Shown in pieces: positions 8,295-60,493 of a stretch of 64,000 nucleotides of DNA. The position numbers and the translations under genes were made by a program. Position 1 is the first letter of the stretch; every line of letters starts with the position of its first letter. The notes below the pieces were generated by a model. It made no database searches. It was not told where the DNA came from and saw only the letters and a list, made by a program, of their open reading frames with translations. This DNA comes from an uncultured Candidatus Saccharibacteria bacterium (lineage in GTDB: Bacteria > Patescibacteriota > Doudnabacteria > UBA920), in contig CAZEKH010000001.1 in the NCBI GenBank assembly GCA_964512925.1, positions 200,226-264,225 on the forward strand, in the 5' to 3' direction.

Positions 8295-9277
8295 GGGTTA
8301 GACCAACTGATTCGGGAAAAAATTCCCGTCGAAATAAGGCGGGTTTTTTTAATTGGACAGTTGTGGTTCAAACAAAGCTCGCCAAATTCAATGCGGCCTG
8401 GTTTTTTCAAGCTGGCATCTTCCAGCAGGTTTTTTAAAGCTATAGCTGACGAATTGGTGGCATATCCGTTTATAATCAAAAACTTAGCTTCAGTTGAGAG
8501 AATTTTAAAACAGTCAGACAAGAGTTCGGGTAAATTTTCATTGAATTTCCAGATTTTGCCTTCCGGCGATCTGCCATAGGCGGGCGGGTCCATAATAATG
8601 CCGTCATAAGTATTTCCGCGCTTGATTTCTCTTTTAACAAATTTTACAGCATCATCTAAAATCCACCTGACAGCATCTTCGGGGAGGTTATTAAGTTTGG
8701 AATTTTCATTGGCCCAGCTTATTGCCGGTTTGGAGGCATCCACGTGGGTTACTTTACAGCCCAGTTTGGCTAAAACCATAGTAGCCCCGCCGGTATAGGC
8801 AAATAGATTTAGCACCCTCACCCTACCCTCTCCCACTGGGAGAGGGGAAGGGGAGAGGGTTGATTTTTGATCTTCAAATTTTAAATCATTTAATCTTTCG
8901 ATCATATATTCCCAATTGGCAGCCTGTTCGGCAAAAATACCGGTGTGTTTGAAGGGGGATAGTTTAAGATGAAATTTAACCGAAGTATCTCCCTCTCCCT
9001 TGAGGGGGGAGGATGGGTGGGGGTGAGAAGTTGGAAATTTTATTATCCAAGGTTCAGGGATTTTATTTTTTATTTCCCATCTGCCTTTTTCCCCTCCCAC
9101 ACCTTGCTGAAAAATTGCATCGGCTTTTGTCCATTCTGACTCAGACAGGCTTTTTTGCCATATAATCTGTGGATCTGGACGTTGTAAAATAACTTTGCCC
9201 CAACGTTCCAAACGAAAACCAGCGCCTGTGTCCAGGAGTTCAAAGTCCCAAGTTTTATTGTAAGATTCTAAAAGCAT
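8291..9277 (-). CDS. class I SAM-dependent rRNA methyltransferase, RlmI/YccW-like
   Basis: VLNLFAYTGG...VDAS...IMDPPAYGRS motifs; two in-frame palindromic-element insertions (…PLKGEGD… and …PLPVGEGR…). Confidence 0.6.
   Translation of the reverse strand: MLLESYNKTWDFELLDTGAGFRLERWGKVILQRPDPQIIWQKSLSESEWTKADAIFQQGVGGEKGRWEIKNKIPEPWIIKFPTSHPHPSSPLKGEGDTSVKFHLKLSPFKHTGIFAEQAANWEYMIERLNDLKFEDQKSTLSPSPLPVGEGRVRVLNLFAYTGGATMVLAKLGCKVTHVDASKPAISWANENSKLNNLPEDAVRWILDDAVKFVKREIKRGNTYDGIIMDPPAYGRSPEGKIWKFNENLPELLSDCFKILSTEAKFLIINGYATNSSAIALKNLLEDASLKKPGRIEFGELCLNHNCPIKKTRLISTGIFSRISWSNP
8813..8862. repeat. Family-A nested GC-rich palindromic element (core CCTCTCCC-loop-GGGAGAGG)
   Basis: in frame inside the rlmI-like CDS. 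Confidence 0.7.
8988..9030. repeat. Family-A element
   Basis: second copy in the rlmI-like CDS (TCTCCCTCTCCC TTGA GGGGGGAGG…). Confidence 0.65.
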
Positions 9278-9361
9278 ATAAATAAAACTTATAACCGGTA
9301 ATTTTTAACCTGTAACATAAAGTTACTTGTTATCTATTATAAGTTATAAGTTTATTAAAAA

Positions 9362-9760
9362 CTATTTTGCTACGATGTCGCCCAGGTTAAAGCTGTCAAT
9401 TGTGCCCTGATAAGTTACTTTAACTTCTTTGCCCAATAAGCTTGAAAAATCCCGGCTAGTTTTGATGTAAATAGTATGGGCTGAAGTTTGAAGCTTGTAG
9501 TTGCCTTTGCTTATGTTGTCTGAAGCTGTCAGTGTTCCTTCCCAAATCGCGGCAGCTGACTCACCCGGTTGGATTTTGGCCGGGTTTGATGATTTGCCGG
9601 AATTGGCGCTTTCGCCGGCATTTTCATTTTCCGCATCTTTTTGTATAACCGAACTGTTGTCAGTGCCGGTTATTTCAGAGTTATTTTTTCCGTATTGCCA
9701 GGCTGCAATAAGGAGCAAAATCAATGCCCCTATTATGAGGTAATTTTTGTTATTTTTCAT
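9362..9760 (-). CDS. hypothetical secreted/membrane-anchored protein
   Basis: N-terminal hydrophobic signal/anchor; no other motif. Confidence 0.35.
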   Translation of the reverse strand: MKNNKNYLIIGALILLLIAAWQYGKNNSEITGTDNSSVIQKDAENENAGESANSGKSSNPAKIQPGESAAAIWEGTLTASDNISKGNYKLQTSAHTIYIKTSRDFSSLLGKEVKVTYQGTIDSFNLGDIVAK

Positions 9761-9986
9761 AGGATTTAGTTAATATTCTCTCAATAGTTTAAAGGATTTA
9801 CGAAATTTGTCAAAAATAATTTTTGGATCTTAAAGTTTATTAGTTACTATTAATTATTAAGACAAAAGTCCTACTTCGCTAAAGCTATGTAGGACACTTC
9901 TTTATGTATATGTAATTTTACAACTTCTCCGACAATGTATGATTATGCAAGATTAGTGTCTGCGCTTCGTAGCCTTGGCGAAGAAG

Positions 9987-10062
9987 TGGTGGGATGGGAG
10001 GGGATCGAACCCTCGACAAACGGCTTAAAAGGCCGCTGCTCTACCGACTGAGCTACCATCCC
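9987..10062 (-). tRNA. tRNA-Lys (anticodon UUU)
   Basis: reverse complement gives GGGATGG acceptor stem, D-arm GCTCAGTCGGTAGAGC, anticodon loop CTTTTAA, GTTCGATCC T-loop, encoded CCA. Confidence 0.85.
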
Positions 10063-10173
10063 AGATTTGACTATCTTGCATATCTTACAACATTCCTGGT
10101 TTTTTTTCAATATCCACACTGAAGTTATTTTTTATGGTATAATGATATAAATTCAAAATCATTAGAAACCAAA

Positions 10174-10698
10174 ATGTATTTATCCAAAATAAAGACTTTT
10201 TCCAGGAAGCAAAATCATGGGTTTACTTTAATTGAACTTCTGGTAGTAGTGGCAATTATTGCCCTTTTGTCATCAGTGGCTTTGATTGCTTTCATATCCG
10301 CCAGGCAGAAATCCAGAGATGTAAAAAGGCTGTCCGATATGACGCAAATGAATACGGCGCTTGAACTTTTTTATTCCGCCAATAAAGGTTATCCCGCTGG
10401 GATAGGAGGTATACCCCAGGGGATGACTCCAACTGCAGTGGGAATCATTCCCACAGCTCCCATAACTCCTGACGGGATATGCGACGGACTTACGCACTCT
10501 GCGGATAGCTGTGTGATGGGCGATGCGGCTTGTAACGGCGTGCCGCAAAATACTTACTATTATGTGGCTACGGGCACAATGTATAACTTAGGCGGGCCGG
10601 ATTTGTACCCGGATTATAATTACTTTTTTTGCTTGGGTAAAAATACTGCAAATTTTGAAGCAGGACCCAGGATCATAACGCCAAAAGGCATACGATAA
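10174..10698 (+). CDS. type IV pilin-like protein with prepilin N-terminal cleavage/methylation domain
   Basis: leader then G/FTLIELLVVVAIIALL class III signal; Cys-rich C-terminal part. Confidence 0.7.
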   Translation: MYLSKIKTFSRKQNHGFTLIELLVVVAIIALLSSVALIAFISARQKSRDVKRLSDMTQMNTALELFYSANKGYPAGIGGIPQGMTPTAVGIIPTAPITPDGICDGLTHSADSCVMGDAACNGVPQNTYYYVATGTMYNLGGPDLYPDYNYFFCLGKNTANFEAGPRIITPKGIR

Positions 10699-11973: not shown

Positions 11974-12055
11974 GTAAAACCCTTTCGGCTATTGGAGAGC
12001 TGCCCGCCGTGGCTGTTCGGGCGGGAATCCTTTATATTTATTACAATTGTTGTAA

Positions 12056-12097
12056 CCTCACCCCAACCCTCTCCCATATGGGAGAGGGGGAGGTTGG
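12056..12097. repeat. Family-A element, full form CCTCACCCCAACCCTCTCCC-ATAT-GGGAGAGGGGGAGGTTGG
   Basis: intergenic; outer and inner arms both complementary. Confidence 0.75.
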
Positions 12098-13652: not shown

Positions 13653-13708
13653 CTCCTTCTCCGATACCTGCCCGTCCGGCAGGCGGGTCGGAGAGGGTTG
13701 GGGTGAGG
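13653..13708. repeat. Family-A long variant with extra inner hairpin (…TCTCCGACCCGCCTGCCGGACGGGCAGGTATCGGAGA…)
   Basis: intergenic; near-identical to copy at 18383 in opposite orientation. Confidence 0.75.
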
Positions 13709-15571: not shown

Positions 15572-16831
15572 ATGCTCGTCGCTTTACAACAATCTATCAA
15601 AACACTTAGAAGCAACCTGGTACGCACTGCCCTGACGACTCTTGGCATTGTAATTGGCATTGCTTCGGTGGTGATGGTGCTGTCGGCAGGGGCGGGTTTT
15701 AAGTCGTACATAAATTCCCAGGTTTCCGCTTTTGGCAGCAATTTTATTACCGTGGAAACACGGGTGCCTCCTACAACTAAAAATCGGGCATCTGGTTCTT
15801 CCGGCGGTTCGCAGTCAAATTCGGCGAGTCAGGCGGTCGGCATAACCACTTTAAAGCAAAAAGATGTGGATGAAATTTCCAGGCTGCCAAATATTTCCGG
15901 AGCTTACGGCGCAGTGATCGGCCAGAAGATTGTTTCCTACAAAGCGGTGAGTAAAAATTCATTTGTGTTTGGAGCAAATGCGTAAAGATTTTCCATTGAT
16001 AGGGGAGTTTTGGCTAAAGGCAGGCCTTATAGCGAGATTGAGGATAGAGCGGCTGATCAGGTTGCAGTTTTGGGCGCGGATATCGCAATAGATCTTTTTG
16101 GTCAGGAAGACCCGCTAGGAAAGACCGTCAGGGTCGGTGAATATAATTTTTTAGTCATAGGGGTATATGAAAGAAGGGGTAGTTTTGGTTTTTCCAACGA
16201 CGACCAGCAAGTTTTTGTGCCGCTCAAGACAGCCCAAAAAAAACTTTTAGGAATTGATCATTTATTTTATGTCTTGGCGCAGGCCAAGGATCCTGCACAA
16301 GCAGAGGCCACTGCCGAAGATATGAGGTATATACTCAGGCAGAATCACGATATACAAGATCCTGCAAAAGATGATTTTGCGGTGCAAACCCAGGCGCAGG
16401 GACTGGAAACATTTGATCAAATCTTAAAAGGTATTACTTTTTTGCTCATTGCTGTGGCAGCGATTTCACTTTTGGTGGGCGGGGTGGGTATTATGAACAT
16501 AATGTATGTGGCGGTGACTGAAAGGATTGCTGAGATTGGGCTGAAAAAAAGCGTGGGCGCCAAAGAAAAAGATATTTTAGCTGAGTTTTTAACCGAAGCC
16601 GTGATCCTGACTGTTTTGGGGGGTGTTTTAGGTATACTTTTGGGAGCTCTACTATCTTATGGTGTAGCTTTGGGAGCTAGGGCTTTTGGTTTTGCCTGGG
16701 ATTTTTCAGTGCCAGCGTCTGGCGTGTTTTTGGGCTTGGGTGTTTCTACGGTAATCGGTTTGTTGTTTGGAGTTTTTCCGGCCAGGACTGCTGCAAAGAT
16801 GCAGCCTATCGATGCCCTCAGGAGCGAGTAA
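15572..16831 (+). pseudogene. second MacB/LolCE-family permease interrupted by an in-frame TAA (15983..15985); pieces 15572..15985 and 16010..16831 are in the same frame
   Basis: the two ORFs together match the full-length paralog 14189..15454; the stop falls where an aromatic residue is expected (…FGANA*RFSIDRG…), consistent with TAY->TAA. Confidence 0.6.
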
Positions 16832-18176: not shown

Positions 18177-18261
18177 GAGAGTCTTTGATTTAAAGATTTA
18201 ATGATTGAAAATAAAATGATTGTTAACAGGAAATAATAAAAAAATAACTTATATTACAAAA

Positions 18262-18292
18262 ACCTCGGAATATTCCGAGGTTTTTGTTTTTT
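18262..18292 (+). terminator. rho-independent terminator (ACCTCGGAATATTCCGAGGT + T-run)
   Basis: perfect palindrome plus TTTTTGTTTTTT. Confidence 0.65.
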
Positions 18293-18295
18293 AAA

Positions 18296-18330
18296 ACCCT
18301 CTCCCATTTGGGAGAGGGGTAGGGGTGAGG
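18296..18330. repeat. Family-A element
   Basis: intergenic, just after the NDH-2 terminator. Confidence 0.7.
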
Positions 18331-18382
18331 TTACGATGAATGTAAAAATAACTAGAGTTTAATTAAAATTTGAACTTTATTA

Positions 18383-18440
18383 CCTCACCCCCTAACCCTC
18401 TCCGACCCGCCTGCCGGACGGGCAGGTATAGGAGAGGGAG
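18383..18440. repeat. Family-A long variant
   Basis: abuts the topA stop codon. Confidence 0.75.
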
Positions 18441-20795
18441 TTATTGAGCTTTCTTTTTACCATAAACCTTGCGAGGTTTTGGAGGGTTTTCCTTCCAGTG
18501 TTTTAGGGCTTCTTGGAGTTCTGCTTCACTTTCAGGTTTTTTGGACATTATAAAGTTGCAATCCGGAAAACGATTGCAGGCATAAAAGAGTTTACCGCGG
18601 CCGCGGGATTTTCTTTCTACCACATCGCCAGTTTGGCAATTGGGACATTTAAACCCGGTTTTGTTCCAAATTTTGCTGATGCCTTTGCATTTGGGGTAGT
18701 CAACACAGCCCAAGAAAAATCCAAACCGCCCTTTTTTGACTTTCATTTCTTTGCCGCAGATGGGGCAGACTTCGCCCTTGGTTTTTTCTTCCAAAGCTTT
18801 GATCTGGGCTTCTTCTTCCGGCATTGGCTTGGTGGTTTTGCACTCAGTATCTGGGCAGGCCATAAATTTACCGGTCCGGCCGAATTTGATGATCATCATT
18901 TTGCCGCATTTCGGACAGGGGATGGTGGTTACCTCAATCTGTTTTTCCACACTCGCTTCTTTTTCTTTCAGATGTTTTTTGAAAGGTCCGTAAAATTCGT
19001 GCATTACCTCGGTCCATTTCATTTTGCCTTCCGCTATCTGGTCAAATTCTTCTTCTATATGCGAAGTAAAGTTTATATCTACGATCTCAGGAAAATTTTC
19101 AACCAGCATATCGGTTACCAAAAACCCTTCTTCAGTGGGCTTGAATTTTTTTTCTTCCTTGGTTACATAACCGCGGACCTCTATGGTGGACAGTGTAGGA
19201 GCATAGGTTGAGGGTCTGCCAATGCCGTGGGCTTCCAGCGCTTTAACCAGGCTGGCGTCCGTATACCTGGCAGGGGCTTCAGTAAAATGCTGGAGCGGCA
19301 AAAGCTCGTGAAGTTTGAGTTTTTCTTGTTCTGACAGCTCAGGCAGCATACCTTCTATCTCATCTTCCGGTTTTTCATCCGACCCTTCGGTATAGGCGCG
19401 GATAAATCCGTCAAACTTTATGACTTGTCCGTTGGCGCGAAAGACATAATTATTGATCTGCTGATTTTCTGCTTGCCCTTCATAGCCTTGGCGAAGGAGG
19501 GATCTACTGGCAGGCTTGGCTTCTATATCCACCGCAGTTTGTTCCATCAACGCAGCCTGCATCTGACAAGCGATGGTTCGTTTCCAGATTAAGTCATAGA
19601 GCCGAAACTGCTGTCTGTCTAAATATTGTTTTAAATTTTCAGGTTTTCTTAAGACATCGGTTGGACGTATGGCTTCGTGCGCTTCCTGCGCGCCTTTAGA
19701 CTTGTTGGTAAAATGTCTGGGTTCAGACAGACCGTATTCTTTGCCGAATTCGGCAGAGATGACTTGGCCTATGGCAGTTAAAGCTGATTGAGCCAGGTTC
19801 AAACTGTCGGTACGCATATAGGTGATAAGTCCCTGGTGGCCTTCATCGCCAATATCAATTCCTTCATAGAGCTGTTGAGCTACCATCATTGTCTGTTTGG
19901 CTGACATACCGAGTTTGCGCGCCGCTTCTTGTTGGAGCGTGGAAGTGGTAAAAGGGGCGGATGGATTTCTTTTAACTTCTTTTTTGGTAATTTCAGAAAT
20001 TTGATAATTTGCGCCTTCAAGATCAGCGACAATTTTTTTGCCTTCAGTCTCAGACTTGATATCCATTTTGCCCACAGTTTTGTCGCCGATTTTGTGGAGT
20101 TTGGCTATGAAGGTTTTATAACTCCCCCCATCCCCCTCTTTAGTTAAAGAGGGGGTGCCGGAGGCGGGGGAGTTTTTGGATAGCTTTGCTTCTATGCTCC
20201 AATACTCTTCCGCAACGAATTTTTGGATTTCCCTTTCCCGTTCAACAACAAGCCTGACAGCCACTGACTGGACGCGTCCGGCTGAAAGACCATACCGGAT
20301 TTTTCGCCAAAGAAAAGGGGAGAGTTCATAACCTACAAGCCTGTCTAAAACCCGCCGAGCCTGTTGGGCGTCAACCAAGTTGATATCTATAGAGCGGGGG
20401 TTTTCTAAGGCGTGTTGGATGGCGGTTTTGGTAATCTCGTGGAAAACGATGCGTTGAATGTTTTTGACGGATGAGGTTTTGCCTTTAGTTTTATTGAGAT
20501 CCAGCGCTTCTATCAAATGCCAGGAGATACTTTCTCCTTCGCGGTCTTCGTCAGTGGCAAGGATGATTTCCTGGCTGTCCTTGGCCAGTTTTTTTAGTTT
20601 GGCAACAGTTTCTTTGGCTTTAGCTGGGATGGAGTAGGTGGGTTCAAAGTCGTGTTCAGTGTCCACGCCCATTTTGCTTTTTGGCAAGTCGCGTACGTGA
20701 CCAAAGCTGGCTTCTACTGTGTAGCCACTGCCTAAAAAACGCGAGATGGTTCTCGCTTTGGTCGGGGACTCGACGATGATAAGAGGCTTGGACAT
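18441..20795 (-). CDS. topA: DNA topoisomerase I
   Basis: TOPRIM N-terminus, Topo IA core, C-terminal zinc-ribbon repeats; in-frame palindromic-element insertion encoding …NSPASGTPSLTKEGDGGS…. Confidence 0.9.
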   Translation of the reverse strand: MSKPLIIVESPTKARTISRFLGSGYTVEASFGHVRDLPKSKMGVDTEHDFEPTYSIPAKAKETVAKLKKLAKDSQEIILATDEDREGESISWHLIEALDLNKTKGKTSSVKNIQRIVFHEITKTAIQHALENPRSIDINLVDAQQARRVLDRLVGYELSPFLWRKIRYGLSAGRVQSVAVRLVVEREREIQKFVAEEYWSIEAKLSKNSPASGTPSLTKEGDGGSYKTFIAKLHKIGDKTVGKMDIKSETEGKKIVADLEGANYQISEITKKEVKRNPSAPFTTSTLQQEAARKLGMSAKQTMMVAQQLYEGIDIGDEGHQGLITYMRTDSLNLAQSALTAIGQVISAEFGKEYGLSEPRHFTNKSKGAQEAHEAIRPTDVLRKPENLKQYLDRQQFRLYDLIWKRTIACQMQAALMEQTAVDIEAKPASRSLLRQGYEGQAENQQINNYVFRANGQVIKFDGFIRAYTEGSDEKPEDEIEGMLPELSEQEKLKLHELLPLQHFTEAPARYTDASLVKALEAHGIGRPSTYAPTLSTIEVRGYVTKEEKKFKPTEEGFLVTDMLVENFPEIVDINFTSHIEEEFDQIAEGKMKWTEVMHEFYGPFKKHLKEKEASVEKQIEVTTIPCPKCGKMMIIKFGRTGKFMACPDTECKTTKPMPEEEAQIKALEEKTKGEVCPICGKEMKVKKGRFGFFLGCVDYPKCKGISKIWNKTGFKCPNCQTGDVVERKSRGRGKLFYACNRFPDCNFIMSKKPESEAELQEALKHWKENPPKPRKVYGKKKAQ
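20123..20172. repeat. Family-A-like element
   Basis: in frame inside topA. Confidence 0.65.
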
Positions 20796-21068: not shown

Positions 21069-21106
21069 GCGGCCGACAGTGCGTTCGGCCGCCGCTTTTT
21101 TATTTT
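21068..21106 (+). terminator. rho-independent terminator (GGCGGCCGA…TCGGCCGCC + T-run)
   Basis: 9-bp GC stem followed by TTTTTTATTTT. Confidence 0.65.
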
Positions 21107-22413
21107 AAAGTACTTTCTTTTTCCCCGATTTTTTCTAGGATTTTTTTTGACTCTTCGGGCGTGGCTGGACGGGGCGTGGAAAAGTTTTCTATGATTACCG
21201 GAATTAGTTCTATTGAGTCAAGTTTAGCAGGAGTTTTTGTTCCCTGAAGCTCATTTTGTCCGCCAGCTGGCGGATTGATTTTTGCCTGCCCGCCTTGTGC
21301 GTTCGGGCGGGATATTTGAATTTTTAAAGCTAGTCCTTCTTTGGTTTCCTGACTCCACTCTTGGTCAAAGATGAAGTTGCCGAGAGAGTAGAAGATATAT
21401 TTGGGGTTTGGGCATTGTGTTTTATCAACCTCTCCCCCCGCCATCCCTTCTTGAGGGGAGGGAGTTTCTTGAATCCCCCTCGCCTCTTGAGGAGAGGGGT
21501 TAGGGGAGAGGTTGTCTTTCGCGCAATACCTCTCTATAGTCTGCACCCAGTGAGGGTGAGCGCCGATGACTATGTCTGCCCCGTAGTCTATGGCGCTGTG
21601 GGCAAAGTCAATTTGGGACTGGTTGGGCGTGCGGGTGTATTCTGTTCCGGCGTGCATTGTAGCCACGACAAAATCGCAAAGCGATTTTGAATACTCAATA
21701 TTCAACTTTAAATTTTCAATATCTTCTATCCTGGCTACGAAATCATTCATTATTTTACCCCCGTCATTTACAGAGGAGTAGGAAGCCCCGACAAAACAAA
21801 TTTTTATCCCGTTTTTTTCTAACATAGCAGGCTGCCAGGCCTCTTTTATATTACTTCCTGTTCCCATATGCTTGATACCCGCATCATTCAATTTTTGTAT
21901 AGTTAGGTCCAGCCCGGTTTTTAGTTGGTCTAACGCATGGTTATTGGCCAAGTTCAAAACCTCAAAATTATATTTTTTTAATATATCAACAGAAGAAGTG
22001 GCAGCGCCGAAGACCAGGGAGCTGCCGCCGATTACAGCTTTTTTTGCCAAAGGACTTTCCAGGTTGCCGAAAGCAAAATCTGCGGATTTGAGCTGTTCAG
22101 CCATTTTTAAAAAAGGCAGTTCTGGATCGCCGAATTCTTTGGCTTTAAGGGCAACCTTGCGGGAGAGGATGATATCGCCGACCGCAAGGAAACTTGCGGA
22201 TGTTGTTTTGGGTTCTGTTTTTTCGCCTCTGAGCTCCTGCCCTTTTTTATAAAAAGCCAAAAGGTCGTTTTGCAAATCGCCTGTTTGGGCAGTGGTCGGC
22301 AGGCCTGTAAAGTCATTTTCATTGCTGCGTAAAAGTCCCAAGAGAGCCGCTAGCGCTAAAATACTCGCCACTATAATAGAAATAATTTTTGTTTTTGACA
22401 TAGTTGTAATCAA
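21100..22413 (-). CDS. CapA/PgsA-family metallophosphoesterase-like protein
   Basis: N-terminal TM; CapA motifs (MHAGTEYTRTP…IVIGAHPHWVQ); two adjacent in-frame palindromic-element insertions (…SPNPSPQEARGIQETPSPQEGMAGGE…). Confidence 0.65.
   Translation of the reverse strand: MITTMSKTKIISIIVASILALAALLGLLRSNENDFTGLPTTAQTGDLQNDLLAFYKKGQELRGEKTEPKTTSASFLAVGDIILSRKVALKAKEFGDPELPFLKMAEQLKSADFAFGNLESPLAKKAVIGGSSLVFGAATSSVDILKKYNFEVLNLANNHALDQLKTGLDLTIQKLNDAGIKHMGTGSNIKEAWQPAMLEKNGIKICFVGASYSSVNDGGKIMNDFVARIEDIENLKLNIEYSKSLCDFVVATMHAGTEYTRTPNQSQIDFAHSAIDYGADIVIGAHPHWVQTIERYCAKDNLSPNPSPQEARGIQETPSPQEGMAGGEVDKTQCPNPKYIFYSLGNFIFDQEWSQETKEGLALKIQISRPNAQGGQAKINPPAGGQNELQGTKTPAKLDSIELIPVIIENFSTPRPATPEESKKILEKIGEKESTLK
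21429..21464. repeat. Family-A element
   Basis: in frame inside capA-like CDS. Confidence 0.65.
21475..21513. repeat. Family-A element
   Basis: adjacent second copy inside capA-like CDS. Confidence 0.65.
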
Positions 22414-23649: not shown

Positions 23650-23836
23650 CAAATAAATACTTTTGTAGTTTCTGCCCTGTCTGTAGGTTGCGAAACTTTG
23701 GTGACATCCCTCCTAACACCAGAGTCTTAGCCCCAAGTAAAGGTACTAAAGCGATTGCTTTATGCTTTTCACCTGCAGGTGGGGTAGAGAATACAATTTA
23801 AAATCCCATACCGATATCTGTCGGGATGGGATTTTA
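23650..23836 (+). ncRNA. candidate small non-coding RNA (~185 nt; size and context 6S-RNA-like, identity unverified)
   Basis: begins just downstream of the consensus promoter; ends at hairpin ATCCCATACCGA…TCGGGATGGGAT + T-run; no ORF; 5' and 3' segments can pair. Confidence 0.35.
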
Positions 23837-24400
23837 TAAATTTAAAAATTTTTTTATTTCCAGTTCAATTTTTGGAAAGACTTCTTTCTGCAGCTGTTCC
23901 AGCTCAGTTTGTAAGAAATTTTGTAATACAAAGGCTTCTGTGGGCAAGATGGTTTTCTCCAGCCTGGATTCAACCCCAATCCTGAGGCGCTGAAAATCCT
24001 GAGTGCCTAAGTGTTCGATTATGCTTTTTATGCCGTTGTGTCCGGCTGCGGAAGAGGAGTGGGTATGGCGGATTTTTCCAAGAGGTAAATCTATTTCATC
24101 CTGTAACACTAACAGATCTTTTGTATAATTAAGTTTATAGAAATCGCAAATTTCTTTAACTGCTTTTCCCGACTCATTCATATAAGTTTGGGGTTTAACA
24201 ACTATTACCCCTCCTCTTAAGGTAAGAGGAGGTAGGGGGGAGTTATGAATCTCCAAAATTTCAGAATGGAATTTTTTTTCCCAATTTGCATTCTGCAATT
24301 TAAATTCTGCAATCAAAAAATCCAAAGCCAGCCACCCGACGTTGTGCCTAGTGTTTTTATATTTTTCTCCCGGATTGCCCAATGCAACAATGATTTTCAT
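23834..24400 (-). CDS. pth: peptidyl-tRNA hydrolase
   Basis: MKIIVALGNPG…TRHNVGW…HNGIKS motifs; in-frame palindromic-element insertion (…SPLPPLTLRGG…). Confidence 0.85.
   Translation of the reverse strand: MKIIVALGNPGEKYKNTRHNVGWLALDFLIAEFKLQNANWEKKFHSEILEIHNSPLPPLTLRGGVIVVKPQTYMNESGKAVKEICDFYKLNYTKDLLVLQDEIDLPLGKIRHTHSSSAAGHNGIKSIIEHLGTQDFQRLRIGVESRLEKTILPTEAFVLQNFLQTELEQLQKEVFPKIELEIKKFLNL
24208..24242. repeat. Family-A-like element (CCCCTCCTCTTAAGGTAAGAGGAGGTAGGGGGGAG)
   Basis: in frame inside pth. Confidence 0.65.
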
Positions 24401-36025: not shown

Positions 36026-36030
36026 TACTT

Positions 36031-36512: not shown

Positions 36513-36589
36513 GTACACAAGAAAAATCTTCATAAACATTGTTCGTGTCCTTTGCGGTAAATGTCTTATTGCTTTTAACAGAGGTTCGA

Positions 36590-37426: not shown

Positions 37427-37452
37427 GCGGTAGTTTGAAAAAGGAAAAAATC

Positions 37453-38016
37453 ATGAAAGTTATATTCGTTCTCCTTTTTTCTCTGGGCGTCATGAACGCC
37501 CAGAGCGTGATAACTGCCGTGCCTTGCACGGTCGGCGGGCAAACCGGTTGGTGCGCAATTTTGCCGCCGGTACAATCCCTGGCCGCACAGCCCGCGCCAC
37601 CGCCTGCTCCGAGACCGCAGCCAACCAGAGTATTCGATCCAAAAGATCGGGCACTTCTGGAGAAAATCGTCGCCCTTGCCGAACGGCAAGGATCGGTTGT
37701 CACGGTTCAGCCCCACCAGGCCGCACAGACCGTCGCTACTCCATCCGTCTCCCAGCCACAACAACCGGTCGTTCAGTCGATCGTGTCCCAGAAGACAATG
37801 GACACTATCGACCGTCGGCTGACTGCCTTGGAAACAGGGCAGAATACCCATGCCGAGAGGATTAACCAGATCGGCGACCGAGTGGTCGCCGTAGAGGGTC
37901 GTGCCAACGAGGCTCTGTCCGCCGCCCAAGCGACGGCGAATGCAGAGCAGCAGCTCCGCAACGCCGTACGCCAGTACGGCACAAAGGACCTGAAAAAGGT
38001 TCTGAACAAGAAGTAA
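37453..38016 (+). CDS. secreted proline-rich coiled-coil protein (high-GC gene)
   Basis: ATG 37453 preceded by AAAGGAAAAAA; signal peptide MKVIFVLLFSLGVMNA; APPPAPRPQP then coiled coil. Confidence 0.45.
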   Translation: MKVIFVLLFSLGVMNAQSVITAVPCTVGGQTGWCAILPPVQSLAAQPAPPPAPRPQPTRVFDPKDRALLEKIVALAERQGSVVTVQPHQAAQTVATPSVSQPQQPVVQSIVSQKTMDTIDRRLTALETGQNTHAERINQIGDRVVAVEGRANEALSAAQATANAEQQLRNAVRQYGTKDLKKVLNKK

Positions 38017-38103
38017 CGCTATTTATCTAACACTTCAATCTTGATTTTTTCCCTTGCTTACATCAGTTAAGCGAGGCAATCAGAAGTGTTAGGTACGAAA
38101 AAC

Positions 38104-38141
38104 GAGGGGGAGAGCAGATGCAATGTCTGTCTCTCCCCCTC
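38104..38141. repeat. Family-A variant GAGGGGGAGAG-N16-CTCTCCCCCTC (11-bp arms)
   Basis: first element of the 38.1-39.05 kb repeat hotspot. Confidence 0.65.
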
Positions 38142-38163
38142 AATTCCTTTATTTCAAGTACAA

Positions 38164-38197
38164 CCTCTCTGTCCCGATCTGATCGGGACATCTCTCC
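38164..38197. repeat. Family-D hairpin CTCTCTGTCCCGAT-CTG-ATCGGGACATCTCTCC
   Basis: copies also at 38839..38870 and, inverted, 51201..51232. Confidence 0.6.
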
Positions 38198-38266
38198 TCC
38201 GCCAGCTGGCGGATTGGGGAGAAAAATATTGAATACTGCTTTGGGATTTATGATTTAGAGTTGCAA

Positions 38267-38303
38267 CCTCTCCCCAACCCTCCCCTCAGTAGGGGAGGGA
38301 GTA
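38267..38303. repeat. Family-A element
   Basis: repeat hotspot. Confidence 0.65.
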
Positions 38304-38696
38304 AGGATGTTGAACTCTGAAATGTGGGTCTTGATATTAGAAAGGAATAGGGATACCAACTTTGTCTGCTACTAGTTTCGCCCATTCTTCCAGCCTTTGA
38401 ATTTTTTTGTGGTTGACTGTTAGTTCTTCGTGAATGGTTTTGGTAAGATGGGATAAATTTGTAAGAGCGGTAGAATGAACATTTAAAGTTTCTTTAATTT
38501 CTTTAAATTGAGCATCTACTTCGGCAAATTTTTCATCCAAATATGTAAAAATTGATTGTAAATTTATATCCATAAAGTTACTGAATGAATTGTTGTAAAA
38601 GTATTATAACAATTAACAAAATGAGTGGCAAATTATGTGGATTTAATGAGGGTTTGGGTGAGAGTATGGAAATTGGTGCATTAACCAAGTCTGTAA

Positions 38697-38732
38697 CCTC
38701 ACCCCAGCCCTCTCCGAACCGGAGAGGGAGGG
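38697..38732. repeat. Family-A element CCTCACCCCAGCCCTCTCC-GAACC-GGAGAGGGAGGG
   Basis: repeat hotspot; near-identical to 44892 copy. Confidence 0.7.
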
Positions 38733-38740
38733 AAATGCAA

Positions 38741-38765
38741 GATTCCCGTATGCACGGGAATGACA
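38741..38765. repeat. Family-B subtype GATTCCCGT-ATGC-ACGGGAATGACA
   Basis: near-identical to 60943 copy. Confidence 0.6.
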
Positions 38766-38838
38766 GAGACAAGTAAGGAATGACAAATAAAGTTAGGAGG
38801 ATGTTCTTTAAAAATTTAGCGTTTGTTTTTTGGTAGCA

Positions 38839-38870
38839 CCCTCTCTGTCCCGATCTGATCGGGACATCTC
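38839..38870. repeat. Family-D hairpin
   Basis: identical core to the 38164 copy. Confidence 0.6.
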
Positions 38871-38888
38871 CCCCCAAAGGGGGAGAGA
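38867..38888. repeat. Family-A short form TCTCCCCCC-AAA-GGGGGAGAGA
   Basis: repeat hotspot. Confidence 0.55.
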
Positions 38889-38930
38889 AAAAGGAAGGTC
38901 TATCCGGACGCGTAGGAAAGATTTGTATTT

Positions 38931-38967
38931 TTCCCCCTCTCTTAAGATAAGAGAGGGTTGGGGTGAG
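38931..38967. repeat. Family-A element
   Basis: repeat hotspot. Confidence 0.6.
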
Positions 38968-38983
38968 TTATGAAACTTCATAA

Positions 38984-39020
38984 CCCCCTCCATCTCCCCC
39001 TTACCTTAAGGGGGAGGGTG
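38984..39020. repeat. Family-A-like element
   Basis: repeat hotspot. Confidence 0.55.
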
Positions 39021-51165: not shown

Positions 51166-51183
51166 AGCGAAGCACTATATTTT

Positions 51184-51204
51184 TCTCCCCAAGACTTGGG
51201 GAGA
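51184..51204. repeat. Family-A short form TCTCCCC-AAGACTT-GGGGAGA
   Basis: directly after nrdJ stop, fused to a family-D element. Confidence 0.55.
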
Positions 51205-51232
51205 TGTCCCGATGAATATCGGGACAGAGAGG
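51201..51232. repeat. Family-D hairpin (GAGATGTCCCGAT-GAAT-ATCGGGACAGAGAGG)
   Basis: directly after nrdJ. Confidence 0.6.
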
Positions 51233-51300
51233 TTGAGTAAAAATTGAAAATTTAAAAATCAAAAATTAAAATTACAGTTTAAAATTTAAAATTAAGAAAT

Positions 51301-51627: not shown

Positions 51628-51719
51628 AAAATCAGGCGGCCTCGTCGTCTCCGAGAACCGCCTTATTGATGTTCATCACTGACTCCTTTAGGAGTGTATG
51701 ATTGCAAAATTGTTATATT

Positions 51720-52406
51720 ATGTCAATAAAAAAGAAACCCACAAATAAACGGATCAAAATGCCGGAGAAGTTTTCTGACGAGCCGAAGGGGTTGGTGATT
51801 TGTTATTTGGGGGCGGGGAAGGGGAAGACTACGGCGGCGATGGGGATGGCTGTTAGGGCGGCTGGAGCCGGGATGAATGTTTATATACTGCAGTTTGTAA
51901 AAGCAAAGGGAGCGGACGAGGAGGGGAAAAAAGTCGGCGAGTGGCCGGTGTCGAGCGAAATTGAGTTTTTTAATGCTTTGGAACAATATCACCCCCTAGC
52001 CCCCTCTTATGCTAAGAGGGGGAATGAAGGGGAGGGAAGAATTGGAAATATCTATAATGAGCAAGTTGGTTTAGGGTTTGTGGGGATATTGGGCGACCAG
52101 AAAGAAAAGGCAGTTCATATCAAAGCGGCGCTGGATGGGTTAAACAAAGCCAGGGAAATTATTTCCAGCGGACGATACCAAGTCGTTATTTTAGACGAGA
52201 TTATTTCCGCTTTGGAATCCAAACTTTTGGAAGAAAGGGATATTTTGGATTTAATCTCCGTCAAAAGTCCACTTCAGCATCTGGTTTTGACGGGACATAA
52301 TAAATTCCCTAAAATACTGGAGCGTTGTGATTTGGTTACGGAAATGGTGATGGTGAAGCACCCATACTATAAAGGGATACTTGCGCAAAGAGGAATAGAT
52401 TATTAG
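51720..52406 (+). CDS. cobO: ATP:cob(I)alamin adenosyltransferase, CobO/BtuR family
   Basis: P-loop GAGKGKTTAA…, …VVILDE…, …LVLTGHN…; in-frame palindromic-element insertion; start uncertain (TTG 51702, ATG 51720 or 51759). Confidence 0.7.
   Translation: MSIKKKPTNKRIKMPEKFSDEPKGLVICYLGAGKGKTTAAMGMAVRAAGAGMNVYILQFVKAKGADEEGKKVGEWPVSSEIEFFNALEQYHPLAPSYAKRGNEGEGRIGNIYNEQVGLGFVGILGDQKEKAVHIKAALDGLNKAREIISSGRYQVVILDEIISALESKLLEERDILDLISVKSPLQHLVLTGHNKFPKILERCDLVTEMVMVKHPYYKGILAQRGIDY
51991..52036. repeat. Family-A-like element
   Basis: in frame inside cobO. Confidence 0.6.
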
Positions 52407-53094: not shown

Positions 53095-53694
53095 ATGGTT
53101 TACTTAATAATACTTTTAGCAGTTTTGTCCAGGTTTGTGCCGCATATGCCAAACTTTGCGCCCATAACCGCTTTGGCTATTTTTACCGCAGCTTATATGC
53201 CGTGGAAAAAAGCCGCGGGACTGACTTTGGTTGTTCGTTTGATCAGCGACATTTTTTTGGGATTTTTCTCCTGGCCGATGATGCTGGCTGTTTATGCTTC
53301 GCATCTGGCAGGAATTGTGTTTGGAGTATGGATAAAGAACTCCTCCCGGCCTCCTCTTTGCCAAAGAGGAGGAGTTAAAGAGAAGTTATATTCCCCCTCT
53401 TTACCAAAGAGGGGGTTAGGGGGAGTTAATTTTTCTAAGGTTTTTGTGTCCTCGTTAGGTTCCTCAATAATCTTTTTTTTAGTCACAAACTTTGCTTTTT
53501 TGTATTCTAACTACCCGCATACGTTAGCGGGCATACTTCAAGCTTATATAAACGGCCTGCCTTTTTTGCGCGGTACGATGTTTGGCGATTTAGTTTATTC
53601 CTTTGCTTTTTTTGGAGCGTATGCTTTGGCTTCAATGAAGTTCAAATTTGCAAATAGGACAAATCTACAAATGATTACAAATGATAAATATTAG
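53095..53694 (+). CDS. small polytopic membrane protein, possibly an ECF-type S component (speculative)
   Basis: 5-6 TM helices; two in-frame palindromic-element insertions in a loop; adjacent to the DUF4430 gene. Confidence 0.3.
   Translation: MVYLIILLAVLSRFVPHMPNFAPITALAIFTAAYMPWKKAAGLTLVVRLISDIFLGFFSWPMMLAVYASHLAGIVFGVWIKNSSRPPLCQRGGVKEKLYSPSLPKRGLGGVNFSKVFVSSLGSSIIFFLVTNFAFLYSNYPHTLAGILQAYINGLPFLRGTMFGDLVYSFAFFGAYALASMKFKFANRTNLQMITNDKY
53350..53373. repeat. Family-A-like short palindrome CCTCCTCTTTGCCAAAGAGGAGG
   Basis: in frame inside the 53095 membrane-protein CDS. Confidence 0.55.
53393..53425. repeat. Family-A-like element
   Basis: second in-frame copy inside the 53095 CDS. Confidence 0.55.
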
Positions 53695-56635: not shown

Positions 56636-56668
56636 CCCCCTCCCTTGAGGGGAGGGGTTAGGGGAGGG
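56636..56668. repeat. Family-A element
   Basis: intergenic between cyclophilin and ndk. Confidence 0.7.
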
Positions 56669-56722: not shown

Positions 56723-57313
56723 ATGCAACATTTAAAACAAGAAAAAACTTTAGTATTGGTAAAGCCGGACGGCGTAAAGCGCGGACTTATAGGCGAGATT
56801 GTAGGCCGCATTGAACGCAGGGGACTGAAAGTCATTGCTTTGAAAATGGTTCAGGTAGGACGGGAACATTTGGAAAATCATTTTCCGAAAAGCGATGAGT
56901 GGGTAGGAAGGCTCGGGGATAAAGGACTTTCAACTTTTGCGGACTATAAACTGGATCCAAAAGAGCATCTCGGGACCGATGACAGAATGGAGATTGGCAG
57001 GAAAGTCAAAGAAAGCCTTTTTGCTTATATGACTTCTGGGCCCATAGTGGCTTTAGTCATAGAAGGTATTCACGCTATAGATATGGTTAGGAAATTGGCT
57101 GGGCATACTTTGCCTTTTAAAGCTGAGATGGGAACTTTGAGAGGGGATTTCTCCGTGGATAGTCCAGCTATTGCCAATGTAGAAGGTAGAGCCATAAAAA
57201 ATATAATGCACGCTTCTGAAACTCCGGAAGAAGCTAAAAACGAAATCGCTTTGTGGTTTAAGCCGGAAGAGATCCACAGCTACAAGCGGGCAGAAGAAGA
57301 CATAATGTTTTAA
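56723..57313 (+). CDS. ndk: nucleoside diphosphate kinase (with internal insertion)
   Basis: TLVLVKPDGVKRGLIGEIVGRIERRGLKV…, NIMHASE active-site His region. Confidence 0.75.
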   Translation: MQHLKQEKTLVLVKPDGVKRGLIGEIVGRIERRGLKVIALKMVQVGREHLENHFPKSDEWVGRLGDKGLSTFADYKLDPKEHLGTDDRMEIGRKVKESLFAYMTSGPIVALVIEGIHAIDMVRKLAGHTLPFKAEMGTLRGDFSVDSPAIANVEGRAIKNIMHASETPEEAKNEIALWFKPEEIHSYKRAEEDIMF

Positions 57314-58963: not shown

Positions 58964-59017
58964 ATATTACGCTAGATGCTATAATTGTAGCAATATTAAG
59001 CTGAAATATCTACTCTT

Positions 59018-60022
59018 ATGCCAGAACTCCCGGAAGTTGAAACAGTTGTCAGAGAACTCAACAAAAAACTAAAAAATCTAACATTGAGTAAGGTGGTTGT
59101 TAACTATGGAAAAATGGTGCATTTGGGTGAGCAAATAGTGAGTAACAAAAGGCAGGATGACAATGGTAGGGTTAAGCAGTTTAAAAATTTATTGGTCGGC
59201 GCCAAAGTGTTAAGTGTGACAAGAAGGGCTAAGCTGTTAATTTTTAGATTGGAGAGCGCCCCCACCCCCCAGCCAACAGCTAGACAGTTAGGCGGGCAGG
59301 CATCCCTCCTCCGCAGTGCGGGAGAGGGGATGCTATATTTATTAGTCCACTTAAAAATGACCGGACAGTTCATCTTTGAAGATGAAAAGCTGAAGAAGAA
59401 GACAGGCAGCCATTACCGCCTATTAAACAAAAAAACAGCACCTTTGGTACAGCTTCCTGGAAAACATACCCACATATTTTTTTATTTTACTGACGGTTCG
59501 GTTTTGTATTTTAACGACGTACGCAAGTTTGGGTATATGAAACTGTTGGTTGGTGGTGAAGCGGTAAAAGTTTTAGCATTTCCCGAGTACGGTCCGGAGC
59601 CTTTGGACAAGAAATTTAAATTACGACAATTTTTAACAGCTGTTAAAAATTGTCAAAAAAGAAAAATCAGCATCAAGATGTTGTTAATGGAGCCTTCCTT
59701 TGTGGCGGGCATCGGCAACATTTACAGCGACGAAATATTATTCCACGCTGGAGTTAAGCCGGACAGGAAAGTTGGAACATTGAAAAAACTAGAAATAGAA
59801 GAAATATATAGAAACATTAAACCAGTTTTGCTAACTGGCATAAAAGCCAAAGGTTCCAGTGTGGGGGATTTTGTGCGCACAGATGGCAGTTGGGGGAAAA
59901 TGGGCAAATATCACTATGTTTACGGCCGGCGCGGGCAAAAATGCAAAAAATGCGGTACAATGATACAAAGCCTAAAGCTGGGTGGCAGGACAGCGAGTTT
60001 TTGTCCCAAATGCCAGGGGTAG
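59018..60022 (+). CDS. mutM: formamidopyrimidine-DNA glycosylase
   Basis: MPELPEVETV N-terminus, H2TH, C-terminal zinc finger CKKCG…CPKCQ; in-frame GC-rich insertion (…SAPTPQPTARQLGGQASLLRSAGEGM…). Confidence 0.85.
   Translation: MPELPEVETVVRELNKKLKNLTLSKVVVNYGKMVHLGEQIVSNKRQDDNGRVKQFKNLLVGAKVLSVTRRAKLLIFRLESAPTPQPTARQLGGQASLLRSAGEGMLYLLVHLKMTGQFIFEDEKLKKKTGSHYRLLNKKTAPLVQLPGKHTHIFFYFTDGSVLYFNDVRKFGYMKLLVGGEAVKVLAFPEYGPEPLDKKFKLRQFLTAVKNCQKRKISIKMLLMEPSFVAGIGNIYSDEILFHAGVKPDRKVGTLKKLEIEEIYRNIKPVLLTGIKAKGSSVGDFVRTDGSWGKMGKYHYVYGRRGQKCKKCGTMIQSLKLGGRTASFCPKCQG
59266..59332. repeat. Family-A-like GC-rich insertion
   Basis: in frame inside mutM. Confidence 0.5.
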
Positions 60023-60192
60023 TAGTAAGTATTAAGTATTTTGTATAAAGTATTAAGCAAAAAAGTTTGAGAGATAAAATATTTAGTATTAATTCCGATT
60101 TACTGATGAAACAAATTTTACCGATACCTGCAGATATTTAATATCCGTAGGTATCGGTATATCTGTAATCTGTATATCGGCATATTTATGTT

Positions 60193-60414
60193 ATGGAAAA
60201 TCAACAAATAGAAAATAAGATCCAAGAAATGTCTACGGAAGATCTGTTAAAGGAAATTTTGGAAAACACCCGAAAGACCAAAAACTACATAAAGTGGCAG
60301 ATGTATATCACTGTGGCGTTTGTGGTGCTACCGCTTTTGGCGGCTTTGGCTATTATCCCAATGGTAATGAGTAATTTAACCGGCCTGGCTGGGGCTTATG
60401 GGCTAGGGCAATAA
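60193..60414 (+). CDS. hypothetical small membrane protein
   Basis: 73 aa with one TM helix. Confidence 0.35.
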   Translation: MENQQIENKIQEMSTEDLLKEILENTRKTKNYIKWQMYITVAFVVLPLLAALAIIPMVMSNLTGLAGAYGLGQ

Positions 60415-60459
60415 AATATTTAATTTGAGTATTGACTGATATTTATATAAACACTCAAA

Positions 60460-60493
60460 CCTCTCCCTAGCCCTCCCCAAGCTTTGGGGAGGG
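60460..60493. repeat. Family-A element
   Basis: intergenic, upstream of 60512. Confidence 0.65.

Follow-up and report, generated by a model that had tools for sequence, protein, structure and literature searches.

Repeats and genes in the window

The window, by which we mean the whole 64-kb stretch of DNA that was analysed, comes from a small Doudnabacteria-like bacterium and carries about 27 copies of a short triplex motif. Some lie between genes and others within seven genes whose ORFs are all intact: those encoding a 2igt-like methyltransferase, TopA, a CapA-like protein, Pth, CobO, a DUF6580 protein and MutM. Copies were sought by a strict scan requiring stems of at least 8 nt, with at most one Watson-Crick mismatch and at most one triplet violation. 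Host genes and the copies within them are as follows.

8291-9277, minus strand: 2igt-like SAM methyltransferase gene, two copies
8815-8859, unstranded: triplex motif with tails on both strands (CCCTCACCCTA-CCCTCTCCC-act-GGGAGAGGG-gaag-GGGAGAGGG), in frame in the methyltransferase gene; peptide STLSPSPLPVGEGRVRV
8992-9023, plus: triplex motif with one Watson-Crick mismatch, in frame in the 2igt-like methyltransferase gene; peptide HPHPSSPLKGEGD
18441-20795, minus: topA
19440-19500, unstranded: possible decayed copy at a second variable site of TopA (PASRSLLRQGYEGQ), from comparison with L003 and L005
20119-20172, minus: in-frame triplex motif of topA with 10/10 triplets and a further tail on its opposite side; peptide NSPASGTPSLTKEGDGGS
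21100-22413, minus: capA-like gene, two copies
21429-21463, minus: degenerate copy, in frame in the capA-like gene
21476-21512, plus: triplex motif, in frame in the capA-like gene
23834-24400, minus: pth
24210-24244, plus: triplex motif, in frame (antisense) in pth; peptide NSPLPPLTLRGG
51702-52406, plus: cobO
51987-52022, minus: triplex motif, in frame (antisense) in cobO; peptide YHPLAPSYAKRG
53095-53694, plus: DUF6580 membrane protein gene, two copies
53338-53372, minus: triplex motif, 9/9 triplets, in frame in the DUF6580 gene
53393-53428, plus: triplex motif, 10/10 triplets, in frame (sense) in the DUF6580 gene
59018-60022, plus: mutM
59258-59332, unstranded: degenerate composite copy, in frame in mutM (SAPTPQPTARQLGGQASLLRSAGEGM)

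The two copies in the capA-like gene jointly encode NLSPNPSPQEARGIQETPSPQEGMAGGE. The intergenic and composite copies are these.

12055-12088, minus: triplex motif, intergenic, CCCTCTCCC atat GGGAGAGGG ttg GGGTGAGGT (strict scan)
13653-13708, plus: long variant, intergenic, with an extra hairpin (CCTGCCCGTCCGGCAGG) in loop 1 of the triplex motif (sequence comparison)
18297-18331, plus: triplex motif, intergenic, one substitution away from the published TM_ECO pattern, sharing about 89% identity with BoxC copies of E. coli (strict scan)
18383-18440, minus: the other copy of the long variant, oriented opposite to that at 13653 and adjoining the topA stop codon (sequence comparison)
33772-33806, plus: triplex motif, intergenic (strict scan)
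36588-36640, unstranded: composite of a GCCCCGAT..ATCGGGGC hairpin and a CCCTCCCC..GGGGAGGG hairpin, mirror tail absent
38160-38215, unstranded: composite with GTCCCGAT-N-ATCGGGAC and CCGCCAGCTGGCGG hairpins
38266-38299, minus: triplex motif, intergenic (strict scan)
38696-38728, minus: triplex motif, intergenic (strict scan)
38839-38888, minus: triplex motif whose loop 2 holds the GTCCCGAT hairpin
38935-38969, plus: triplex motif, intergenic, 9/9 triplets, stem AAGAGAGGG, tail GGGTGAGTT (strict scan)
38981-39016, minus: triplex motif, intergenic (strict scan)
44891-44924, minus: triplex motif, intergenic, downstream of a 1420-aa ORF (strict scan)
46816-46847, plus: triplex motif, intergenic (strict scan)
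51183-51236, plus: triplex motif whose loop 2 holds a GTCCCGAT hairpin; the ribonucleotide reductase gene lies upstream
56637-56668, plus: triplex motif, intergenic, between a PPIase gene and an NDK gene (strict scan)
60460-60493, minus: triplex motif, intergenic, upstream of ORF 60512-60859 (strict scan)

The strict scan returned 20 motifs at 19 loci, or about 3 per 10 kb, compared with 0 or 1 in each of 20 sequences simulated under a first-order Markov model. In the window, 23 hairpins combine an arm of at least 7 nt made up solely of C and T with the complementary arm (about 0 expected); together with the two long variants, the composite copies and the degenerate mutM copy, they make up a broader family. 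It is for this family that the count of more than 25 copies in 64 kb, given by the sequence-only reading, is borne out; the exact core named there, CCTCTCCC-N3-7-GGGAGAGG, occurs only four times (0 expected). That reading had also noted a longer variant at 13653 and 18383 in opposite orientations, and these two copies are indeed about 90% alike. The counts support the conclusion that the elements are multi-copy and non-random. Coding DNA is about 5-fold depleted of copies; those in frame comprise eight strict loci and three degenerate copies (8-11 overall) within the seven intact CDSs.

Architecture of the repeat unit

Each unit consists, in order, of a C-rich stem, a loop, the complement of the stem, a second loop of 2-4 nt and a third stem. 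This last stem is a mirror image of the purine stem: G faces G, and A in the purine stem faces A or T. The C/T stems are 8-10 nt long, loop 1 has 3-7 nt and loop 2 mostly 3 nt, the elements span 32-58 nt, and their feet are AAC...GTT or absent. A second sub-family (B), CCCCCTCTT..AAGAGGGGG..GGGGGAGTT, has another stem sequence and the same design, and some variants hold additional hairpins within loop 1 or loop 2. On single-stranded DNA, the third stem might occupy the major groove in antiparallel orientation and form G.G-C, A.A-T and T.A-T triplets.

Among the 20 perfect-stem hairpins of the window, 17 have a mirror tail with at most one violation (10 are perfect) and only three have it on both sides; the mirror reading of the tail outnumbers the direct-repeat reading by 12:1. 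In 87 further hairpins from other phyla, a minority of which are the search-pattern hits themselves, the tail has at most one violation in 73, and the ratio of mirror to direct-repeat readings is 59 to 4. Stem and tail covary in an example outside the window, where tail GGATGAGGG goes with stem GGGAGAAGG. The unit is thus rarely a nested palindrome. The nested, RPE-type architecture proposed earlier was a misreading of a triplex motif whose tail is usually one-sided, and the outer arms described as frequent are both present in only about three copies (8815-8859, 20119-20172 and, partly, 12055-12093). Full nested palindromes, which fold as long hairpins, are confined to a few copies (8815-8859, DNA fold z-score -4.9, and 20119-20172, z-score -6.1).

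Relation to BoxC/PIT/TM_ECO

We identify the elements as BoxC, also called PIT element or TM_ECO, a G/C-rich class II intrastrand triplex motif originally described in E. coli (Bergler 1992; Hoyne et al. 2000; Holder et al. 2015, PMC4666352). They share with it the three-stem architecture, the stem lengths, the loop sizes and the loop-2 sequences (TTA, CCG/CTG; the published types TTA and CCG agree with window copies), as well as multiple copies in mixed orientation with occasional inverted pairs, the absence of a transposase nearby and a copy number that varies greatly among relatives. The sequences are near-identical (E. coli CCCTCTCCCTTAGGGAGAGGGGTAGGGTGAGGG, window CCCTCTCCCATTTGGGAGAGGGGTAGGGGTGAGGT), and the window copy at 18297 shares about 89% identity with the holC-pepA copy of E. 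coli. The exact TM_ECO pattern, CCCTCNCCC-N3-6-GGGNGAGGG-N3-GGGNGAGGG, is found in an E. coli copy and nowhere in the window, where one copy differs from it by one substitution and 11 by two or three. The E. coli member forms an intrastrand triplex on single-stranded DNA in vitro, and the triplex was undetected in vivo or on double-stranded DNA (PMC4666352).

The window differs in that its host is a small-genome Patescibacterium, in the second sub-family and the variants with hairpins in loop 1 or loop 2, and in carrying 8-11 in-frame copies in conserved genes, whereas all 23 copies in E. coli K-12 are intergenic. The motif occurs in many phyla and in viral contigs, Cyanobacterial matches included, and outside Patescibacteria there are copies in long open frames with recognisable enzyme domains. 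Judged from these frames, coding copies are not CPR-specific, and in-frame copies are seen in other phyla too. The repeat family is found in many bacterial phyla and is linked with local genome instability.

In-frame copies and their orthologues

Every host gene in which the sequence-only reading had placed an in-frame copy was confirmed, and the RPE-like in-frame behaviour that it described is real. When host proteins are aligned to relatives, the check that it proposed, the segments are insertions, missing from many orthologues and solved homologues. The TopA insert is missing in three syntenic relatives, and at the protein's second variable site a clean motif is present in L003 and no motif in L005. 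The CapA loop is absent in L005 and other relatives have different inserts there; most Pth homologues are without the insert, as are seven short-loop CobO orthologues, and both methyltransferase inserts are gaps in the alignment to PDB 2igt. The two DUF6580 copies add 31 aa, with protein residues 2-183 corresponding to profile positions 10-159, and the N-terminal domain of MutM has 174 residues compared with a 117-position profile. The same loops in relatives repeatedly host inserts, but different ones. Motif density in the syntenic relatives is uneven (2.9, 0 and 0.5 per 10 kb in L003, L005 and L007, respectively).

Net insert length is below motif length (+7 aa in Pth, +14 aa in TopA), which indicates that each insertion came with a deletion or replacement. 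No target-site duplication is evident at the TopA, Pth and CapA sites, where orthologues are about 60-80% identical and exact junctions unreadable, and no clean pair of empty and filled sites was found at the DNA level. In the window Pth copy Watson-Crick pairing is intact and one triplet is violated, so that the hairpin may matter more than the triplex; relative to this copy, the L128 Pth insert has two stem positions changed on both sides, with pairing kept. A loop placement of inserts, as earlier supposed, stands for Pth, whose insert is modelled as a low-confidence loop between two beta-strands, this location applying to Pth only.

These comparisons support the reading of the coding copies as true in-frame insertions and not ancestral low-complexity loops. 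Such copies would survive where the net length change keeps the frame, no stop codon arises and the site is a tolerant loop, and they are presumably translated as Pro/Ser/Leu ... Gly/Glu/Arg loops.

Alternative explanations

Rickettsia palindromic elements (Ogata et al. 2000, 2002), whose in-frame behaviour is summarised in PMC10969869, resemble the present elements as selfish-looking repeats that lie in frame in unrelated housekeeping genes and add peptide at fold-compatible positions. This parallel, and the two copies that fold as full nested palindromes (8815-8859, 20119-20172), would suit RPE- or MITE-like elements of a lineage-specific non-autonomous transposon, with arms recognised by a transposase and frame neutrality arising by chance. 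We regard that as quite unlikely: the tail lies mostly on one side and mirrors the adjacent stem instead of pairing with a partner, neither a transposase gene nor a target-site duplication was seen, and the elements show no enrichment in open frames (3.25-3.9 of 6, compared with 3.69 for random 35-mers). RPEs are, moreover, simple long palindromes of about 100-150 bp found only in Rickettsia, while the elements here, set apart by length and description, have 32-58 nt, a mirror third stem and near-identical counterparts in E. coli and many phyla. RPEs are an analogy for the window elements, not their family. Selection of the structures where they stand, for a role in the host such as transcription termination, mRNA stabilisation, translational pausing or the binding of nucleoid proteins, would account for intergenic copies directly downstream of genes (12055, 18383, 44891, 51183), for the two-sided changes that keep stems in Pth orthologues and for hairpins more stable than those of shuffled sequences. 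It is nevertheless unlikely, given that earlier work on E. coli members saw no promoter or terminator activity and no tie to gene class or distance, that a canonical T-tract terminator already lies next to copies (18256-18287), that strict motifs are of mixed orientation (9 plus, 11 minus) with both sense and antisense copies within genes, and that the same sites are empty in closely related genomes.

Ancestral Pro/Gly-rich low-complexity loops with incidental palindromy are very improbable and are refuted by the orthologue comparisons. Although the Pth, CapA and CobO loops are long and Pro/Gly-rich in several relatives too, the segment is missing from many orthologues, whose loops are short, PDB homologues have clean gaps in its place, different lineages carry different motif variants as inserts, and the same DNA motif recurs in unrelated proteins and intergenic DNA (the peptide KEGDGGSY, for example, is common to the window TopA and one relative's Pth). 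The divergence of Logan contig L004 from L003 right after a motif suggests that assemblers break or misjoin at these repeats; an assembly or amplification artefact is nonetheless scarcely credible as the source of the elements, with the identical pth gene, insert included, assembled independently from two other runs and related inserts in many MAGs and in complete E. coli genomes. We favour, with a probability of roughly 75%, membership of the BoxC/PIT/TM family, dense here, with some copies kept in frame in tolerant loops and presumably translated.

A candidate nuclease partner

Outside the window, in 65 of 80 metagenomic cases, inverted triplex motifs flank the gene for DUF559 (a Vsr-like nuclease; YcjD in E. 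coli) on both sides, with a 35-fold local enrichment of motifs near it. A LeuRS with an embedded DUF559 domain was also observed. Neither a DUF559 gene nor any transposase was found in the 64-kb window or in L003, L005 and L007. Because DUF559 genes elsewhere are bracketed by inverted motif copies, the most likely spreading agent would be a DUF559 (Vsr-like PD-(D/E)XK) nuclease acting in trans.

This layout looks analogous to REP/REPIN-RAYT systems, in which short GC-rich structured repeats likewise far outnumber a single-copy nuclease gene flanked in inverted orientation. The window motifs differ from these in having no GTAG/CGTC foot and in lying also within genes, whereas REPs are extragenic; the associated gene encodes a Vsr-like PD-(D/E)XK nuclease and not a Y1 transposase, and no Y1 (RAYT) transposase was found among the window ORFs. 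By description, the motifs may also be likened to the small dispersed repeats of cyanobacteria, very short repeats within genes, which Elhai and colleagues reportedly described in 2008 as mobile and present inside genes and other repeats.

We tentatively propose, at somewhat less than even odds, that triplex motifs are non-autonomous partners or homing targets of DUF559 (YcjD-type) nucleases in a REP/RAYT-like arrangement spanning many phyla, with motif/DUF559 units and solo motifs that settle in frame in essential genes, the LeuRS with its DUF559 domain and the TopA, Pth, CobO and CapA loops of the window being examples. If this is true, a 30-year-old orphan repeat would gain a candidate enzyme, and motif insertion would be a general source of new protein loops.

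Abundance and arrangement of the repeat

The window has a G+C content of ~42% and contains ordinary housekeeping genes, namely those for HrcA-GrpE-DnaK-DnaJ, TopA, DprA, Pth, EngA, HisRS, FtsA, FtsZ, NrdR, ribonucleotide reductase, CobO, ComEC, RelA/SpoT and MutM; named homologues of Pth and CobO come from Candidatus Doudnabacteria or Patescibacteria MAGs. Two tRNAs were identified by tRNA scan, and no rRNA was found by the Rfam and tRNA scans.

We found 23 hairpins, counted as a pure C/T 5' arm plus its complement, against four in the reverse, purine-first arrangement. Lone pyrimidine or purine runs are at chance level (122 observed vs 110-132 simulated); it is the paired arrangement alone, not the single runs, that is special. 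The sequence-only reading had described more than 25 copies of an element built around a core. Taken exactly, that core is non-random (four occurrences vs zero expected), but the higher figure is reached only by a looser family, which comprises the 23 hairpins, composites, a degenerate mutM copy and two long variants:

13653-13708: long variant, counted in the looser family
18383-18440: long variant, counted in the looser family

A strict scan (stems of at least 8 nt, at most one Watson-Crick mismatch and one triplet violation) yielded 20 motifs at 19 loci in the window, compared with 0-1 in simulations. Coding DNA makes up 80% of the window yet holds only eight of the 19 strict loci, corresponding to 0.16 loci per kb of coding and 0.86 per kb of intergenic sequence. 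Selection thus acts against motif copies in genes, although a number of them have survived there. Density also varies strongly among three syntenic relatives (2.9, 0 and 0.5 motifs per 10 kb in L003, L005 and L007 respectively).

Architecture and family membership

The nested palindrome first proposed as the basic unit was not borne out. When window copies are aligned on their loops, outer arms are present on both sides in only about three; in most copies the outer arm is one-sided and unpaired, and it is a mirror image of the adjoining purine stem, with G opposite G and A opposite A or T. A tail of this kind, allowing for a single violation, accompanies 17 of the 20 perfect-stem hairpins in the window, and tails on both sides were seen in three only. 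Loop 2, between purine stem and tail, is mostly 3 nt long in the strict window motifs (TTA, TTG, CTG, CTA or CCG). This layout is that of the class II purine-motif intrastrand triplexes, i.e. BoxC, also named PIT element and then TM_ECO, with the pattern CCCTCNCCC-N3-6-GGGNGAGGG-N3-GGGNGAGGG (PMC4666352); the design has thus already been described. The E. coli holC-pepA copy is ~89% identical to the intergenic window copy at 18297. Rfam, which lacks a model of the motif, gave no match in the window or in 18 loci of other phyla, and a literature search by literal motif sequence returned unrelated primer matches only.

The published survey recorded 3610 TM copies in 262 proteobacterial genomes, and all 23 TM_ECO copies of E. 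coli K-12 were intergenic (PMC4666352). The triplex formed in vitro on single-stranded DNA and was not detected in vivo; neither promoter or terminator activity nor a nearby transposase was found, and local variability was raised at TM_ECO sites (PMC4666352).

We scanned a sequence collection with the pattern GGAGAGGG-N2-3-GGGGWGAGGT and recovered at least 120 loci. The matches listed include Bacteroidota, Cyanobacteria, Alphaproteobacteria, Verrucomicrobiota, Planctomycetota, Chloroflexota, Armatimonadota and several Patescibacteria, and nearly all of them carry the complementary 5' stem, which was not part of the query. In 73 of 87 further hairpins within the matches listed a mirror tail is present, again with no more than one violation; this set is not fully independent, as a minority are themselves matches to the search pattern. 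For GGAGAGG-type stems the tail could equally be read as a direct repeat or as an alternative pairing partner. This reading is ruled out by sub-family B, whose stem AAAGAGGGGG, loop TTA and tail GGGGGAGTTA give 10/10 triplets and decide for a mirror rather than a direct repeat, and by covariation of tail with stem (GGGAGAAGG with GGATGAGGG; GGAGAAGGGGG with GGGGGTTGAGG). Among hairpins from other phyla, the mirror reading prevails over the direct-repeat reading by 59 to 4.

Pattern matches elsewhere fall within long open frames in 23 of 127 cases, and Pfam domains could be recognised in all ten such frames scanned, among them TGT, FemAB, asparagine synthase, altronate dehydratase, a DHH protein and pseudouridine synthase. 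Motifs that apparently lie in frame within ORFs are not confined to CPR genomes.

In-frame copies within host genes

The named host ORFs are all intact, with the element in frame and read, in conceptual translation, as Pro/Ser/Leu ... Gly/Glu/Arg segments, in agreement with the sequence-only reading. Relatives suitable for comparison were available because the order Pth-DprA-CapA-TopA-oxidoreductase-FtsX is kept in L003, L005 and L007. Comparison of host proteins with orthologues or homologous structures confirmed inserted segments in TopA, CapA, Pth, CobO and the methyltransferase. In TopA, NSPASGTPSLTKEGDGGSY is missing from all three relatives, while the flanks are otherwise highly conserved. 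In CapA, L005 is empty between EKY and NGKYIF; at this point the inserts of the window, L003 and L007 all differ from one another. The Pth segment (example peptide spanning the insert, NSPLPPLTLRGG) is missing in most of 26 homologues, several of which have other segments at the same loop; it corresponds to an alignment gap of 8 residues against a solved Pth structure, and in an AlphaFold model (mean pLDDT 90) residues 52-64 form a loop of low confidence that connects strand 46-51 with strand 65-70. CobO has a short loop in seven orthologues and inserts of varied length at that point in others. Both methyltransferase inserts are gaps relative to PDB 2igt (E = 6.5e-54). For DUF6580 and MutM, insertion is suggested by profile length only (182 residues over 150 profile positions and 174 over 117, respectively).

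These segments might instead be ancestral low-complexity loops, a reading refuted by the comparisons with relatives: relatives with short loops, differing inserts at the same point and gaps against PDB structures all speak against it. Another possibility is that the motif is stop-free by design, its pure arms keeping all six frames open; the arms do not do so, however, open frames amounting to 3.9/6 for intergenic copies and 3.25/6 for coding copies, vs 3.69/6 for random 35-mers. As the motif is not inherently frame-neutral, the copies seen in genes are probably a filtered set. The net gain in length (+7 aa in Pth, +14 aa in TopA) is smaller than the motif, and the insertions therefore came with deletions or replacements. 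The motifs inside genes are intact, with 9/9 or 10/10 triplets, and run either with the gene or against it. In the Pth orthologue L128 (62% protein identity), two stem positions of the insert are changed on both sides with pairing retained, and the window copy has gained one triplet violation relative to it.

The likeness to Rickettsia palindromic elements (RPE) thus stands for the in-frame insertion, which is genuine, but not for a new RPE-like class, as the element belongs to a known, widespread repeat family. Whereas E. coli BoxC/PIT/TM copies are strictly intergenic, window copies are also found within essential genes, here in a genome that is reduced.

Separately, the nucleoside diphosphate kinase (56723-57313, 196 aa) matches a 135-position Pfam profile in two stretches, implying an insertion in its N-terminal part; no recognisable triplex motif is present at that insertion.

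Association with DUF559

A DUF559 (PF04480) nuclease domain lies in frame, bracketed by motif-encoded peptides, in three of the motif-bearing open frames from outside the window:

L057 2645-2971: DUF559 embedded in LeuRS, Bacteroidota-type genome
L118 3237-3563: DUF559 embedded in LeuRS, Bacteroidota-type genome
L069 1966-2292: DUF559 embedded in a Type ISP restriction enzyme

DUF559 was detected by local HMM in nine of the 120 listed loci found through the motif, with motifs directly beside the ORF in most. We carried out the reciprocal test on 80 metagenomic DUF559 genes (L133-L212) chosen without reference to the motif. A motif lies within 200 nt of the gene in 65 of the 80; 50/74 have one upstream and 49/74 one downstream. 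Motifs number 4.63 per kb close to the gene vs 0.133 per kb beyond 400 nt. Usually an inverted pair flanks the DUF559 gene, both tails pointing toward it (upstream motifs on the + strand in 45/52, downstream motifs on the - strand in 45/51). Stems are more similar between the two motifs of one gene than between different genes (0.85 vs 0.76), and 14/38 pairs are identical. The ORF that contains the domain is 493-1182 aa long in seven of the 80 cases. E. coli K-12 has a BoxC copy ~170 nt downstream of the DUF559 gene ycjD, in the ycjD-fabI spacer (L132 3706-3740).

No DUF559 gene is present within the window or the three related loci (L003, L005 and L007). The family is huge, and its best 120 profile matches are uninformative on taxonomy, and so on whether Patescibacteria carry it. 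We found no paper tying DUF559, YcjD or PF04480 to these repeats. By analogy with REP/RAYT, to which the DUF559 gene with flanking inverted motifs seen in other genomes may be likened, DUF559 is a candidate for the enzyme that would create, move or maintain triplex motifs. In IMG/VR (L230-L309 and L214-L229), DUF559 also occurs on 16 viral contigs, and the motif pattern was seen in 108 viral-contig stretches, one contig having more than ten copies. Viruses may thus carry motifs and DUF559 from one lineage to another.

Other features of the window and assembly effects

Positions 33900-39900 form an island of ORFs with GC of 0.5-0.6 and signal peptides or membrane helices, separated by triplex-motif clusters, five motifs lying within 38266-39016. 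No Pfam family scored above cut-off for the ORFs at 33917-35002, 36794-37426, 37453-38016 and 39094-39852. Horizontal acquisition or hypervariability of the island seems likely; rRNA with insertions was rejected as an explanation of the GC-rich 34-40 kb region, since neither the Rfam nor the tRNA scan detected any rRNA. A PaaX/Cas2-like gene (35366-36025) sits between two near-identical ~42-nt palindromes (~35285-35325 and 36030-36079; TTGCTGTCAA...TTGACAGCAA), with a short AAAAAACTG tandem just upstream. About eight copies of CGCGGAYT in 140 nt of non-coding DNA (36378-36515) are possibly a binding-site array.

Small hairpins of a second family (GTCCCGAT-N-ATCGGGAC and related forms) occur at 35129-35152, 36598-36617, 38169-38187, 38845-38863 and 51205-51224. 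Most often they sit inside loop 2 of a triplex motif, as if one repeat had inserted into another. A stop codon divides the second MacB/FtsX paralogue (15572-16831) into ORFs of 137 aa and 273 aa, relatives having an intact ~420-aa gene; an element was rejected as the cause, there being no motif or repeat at the break (15985-16010).

L003 (12850-13150) and L004 (6150-6450) share an identical Pth gene and diverge directly after a triplex motif in their capA. They were rejected as a strain-level filled/empty pair, as the contigs just diverge past the motif, probably at an assembly break. Many DUF559 and Pth homologues are on contigs shorter than 2 kb. The motif probably breaks short-read and metagenome assemblies.

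Significance

The observation is real, and what is unusual is the location in genes, not the element: knowledge of BoxC/PIT/TM repeats goes back to 1992, and their triplex formation in vitro has been shown. New are the coding location at such density, the repeated use of the same loops in proteins, the occurrence in a CPR host and the link to DUF559. The repeat hits the same loops again and again in related lineages and lies inside essential genes; it therefore shapes proteins, not intergenic DNA alone. The strong, reciprocal association with DUF559 makes the origin and movement of these repeats a testable question.
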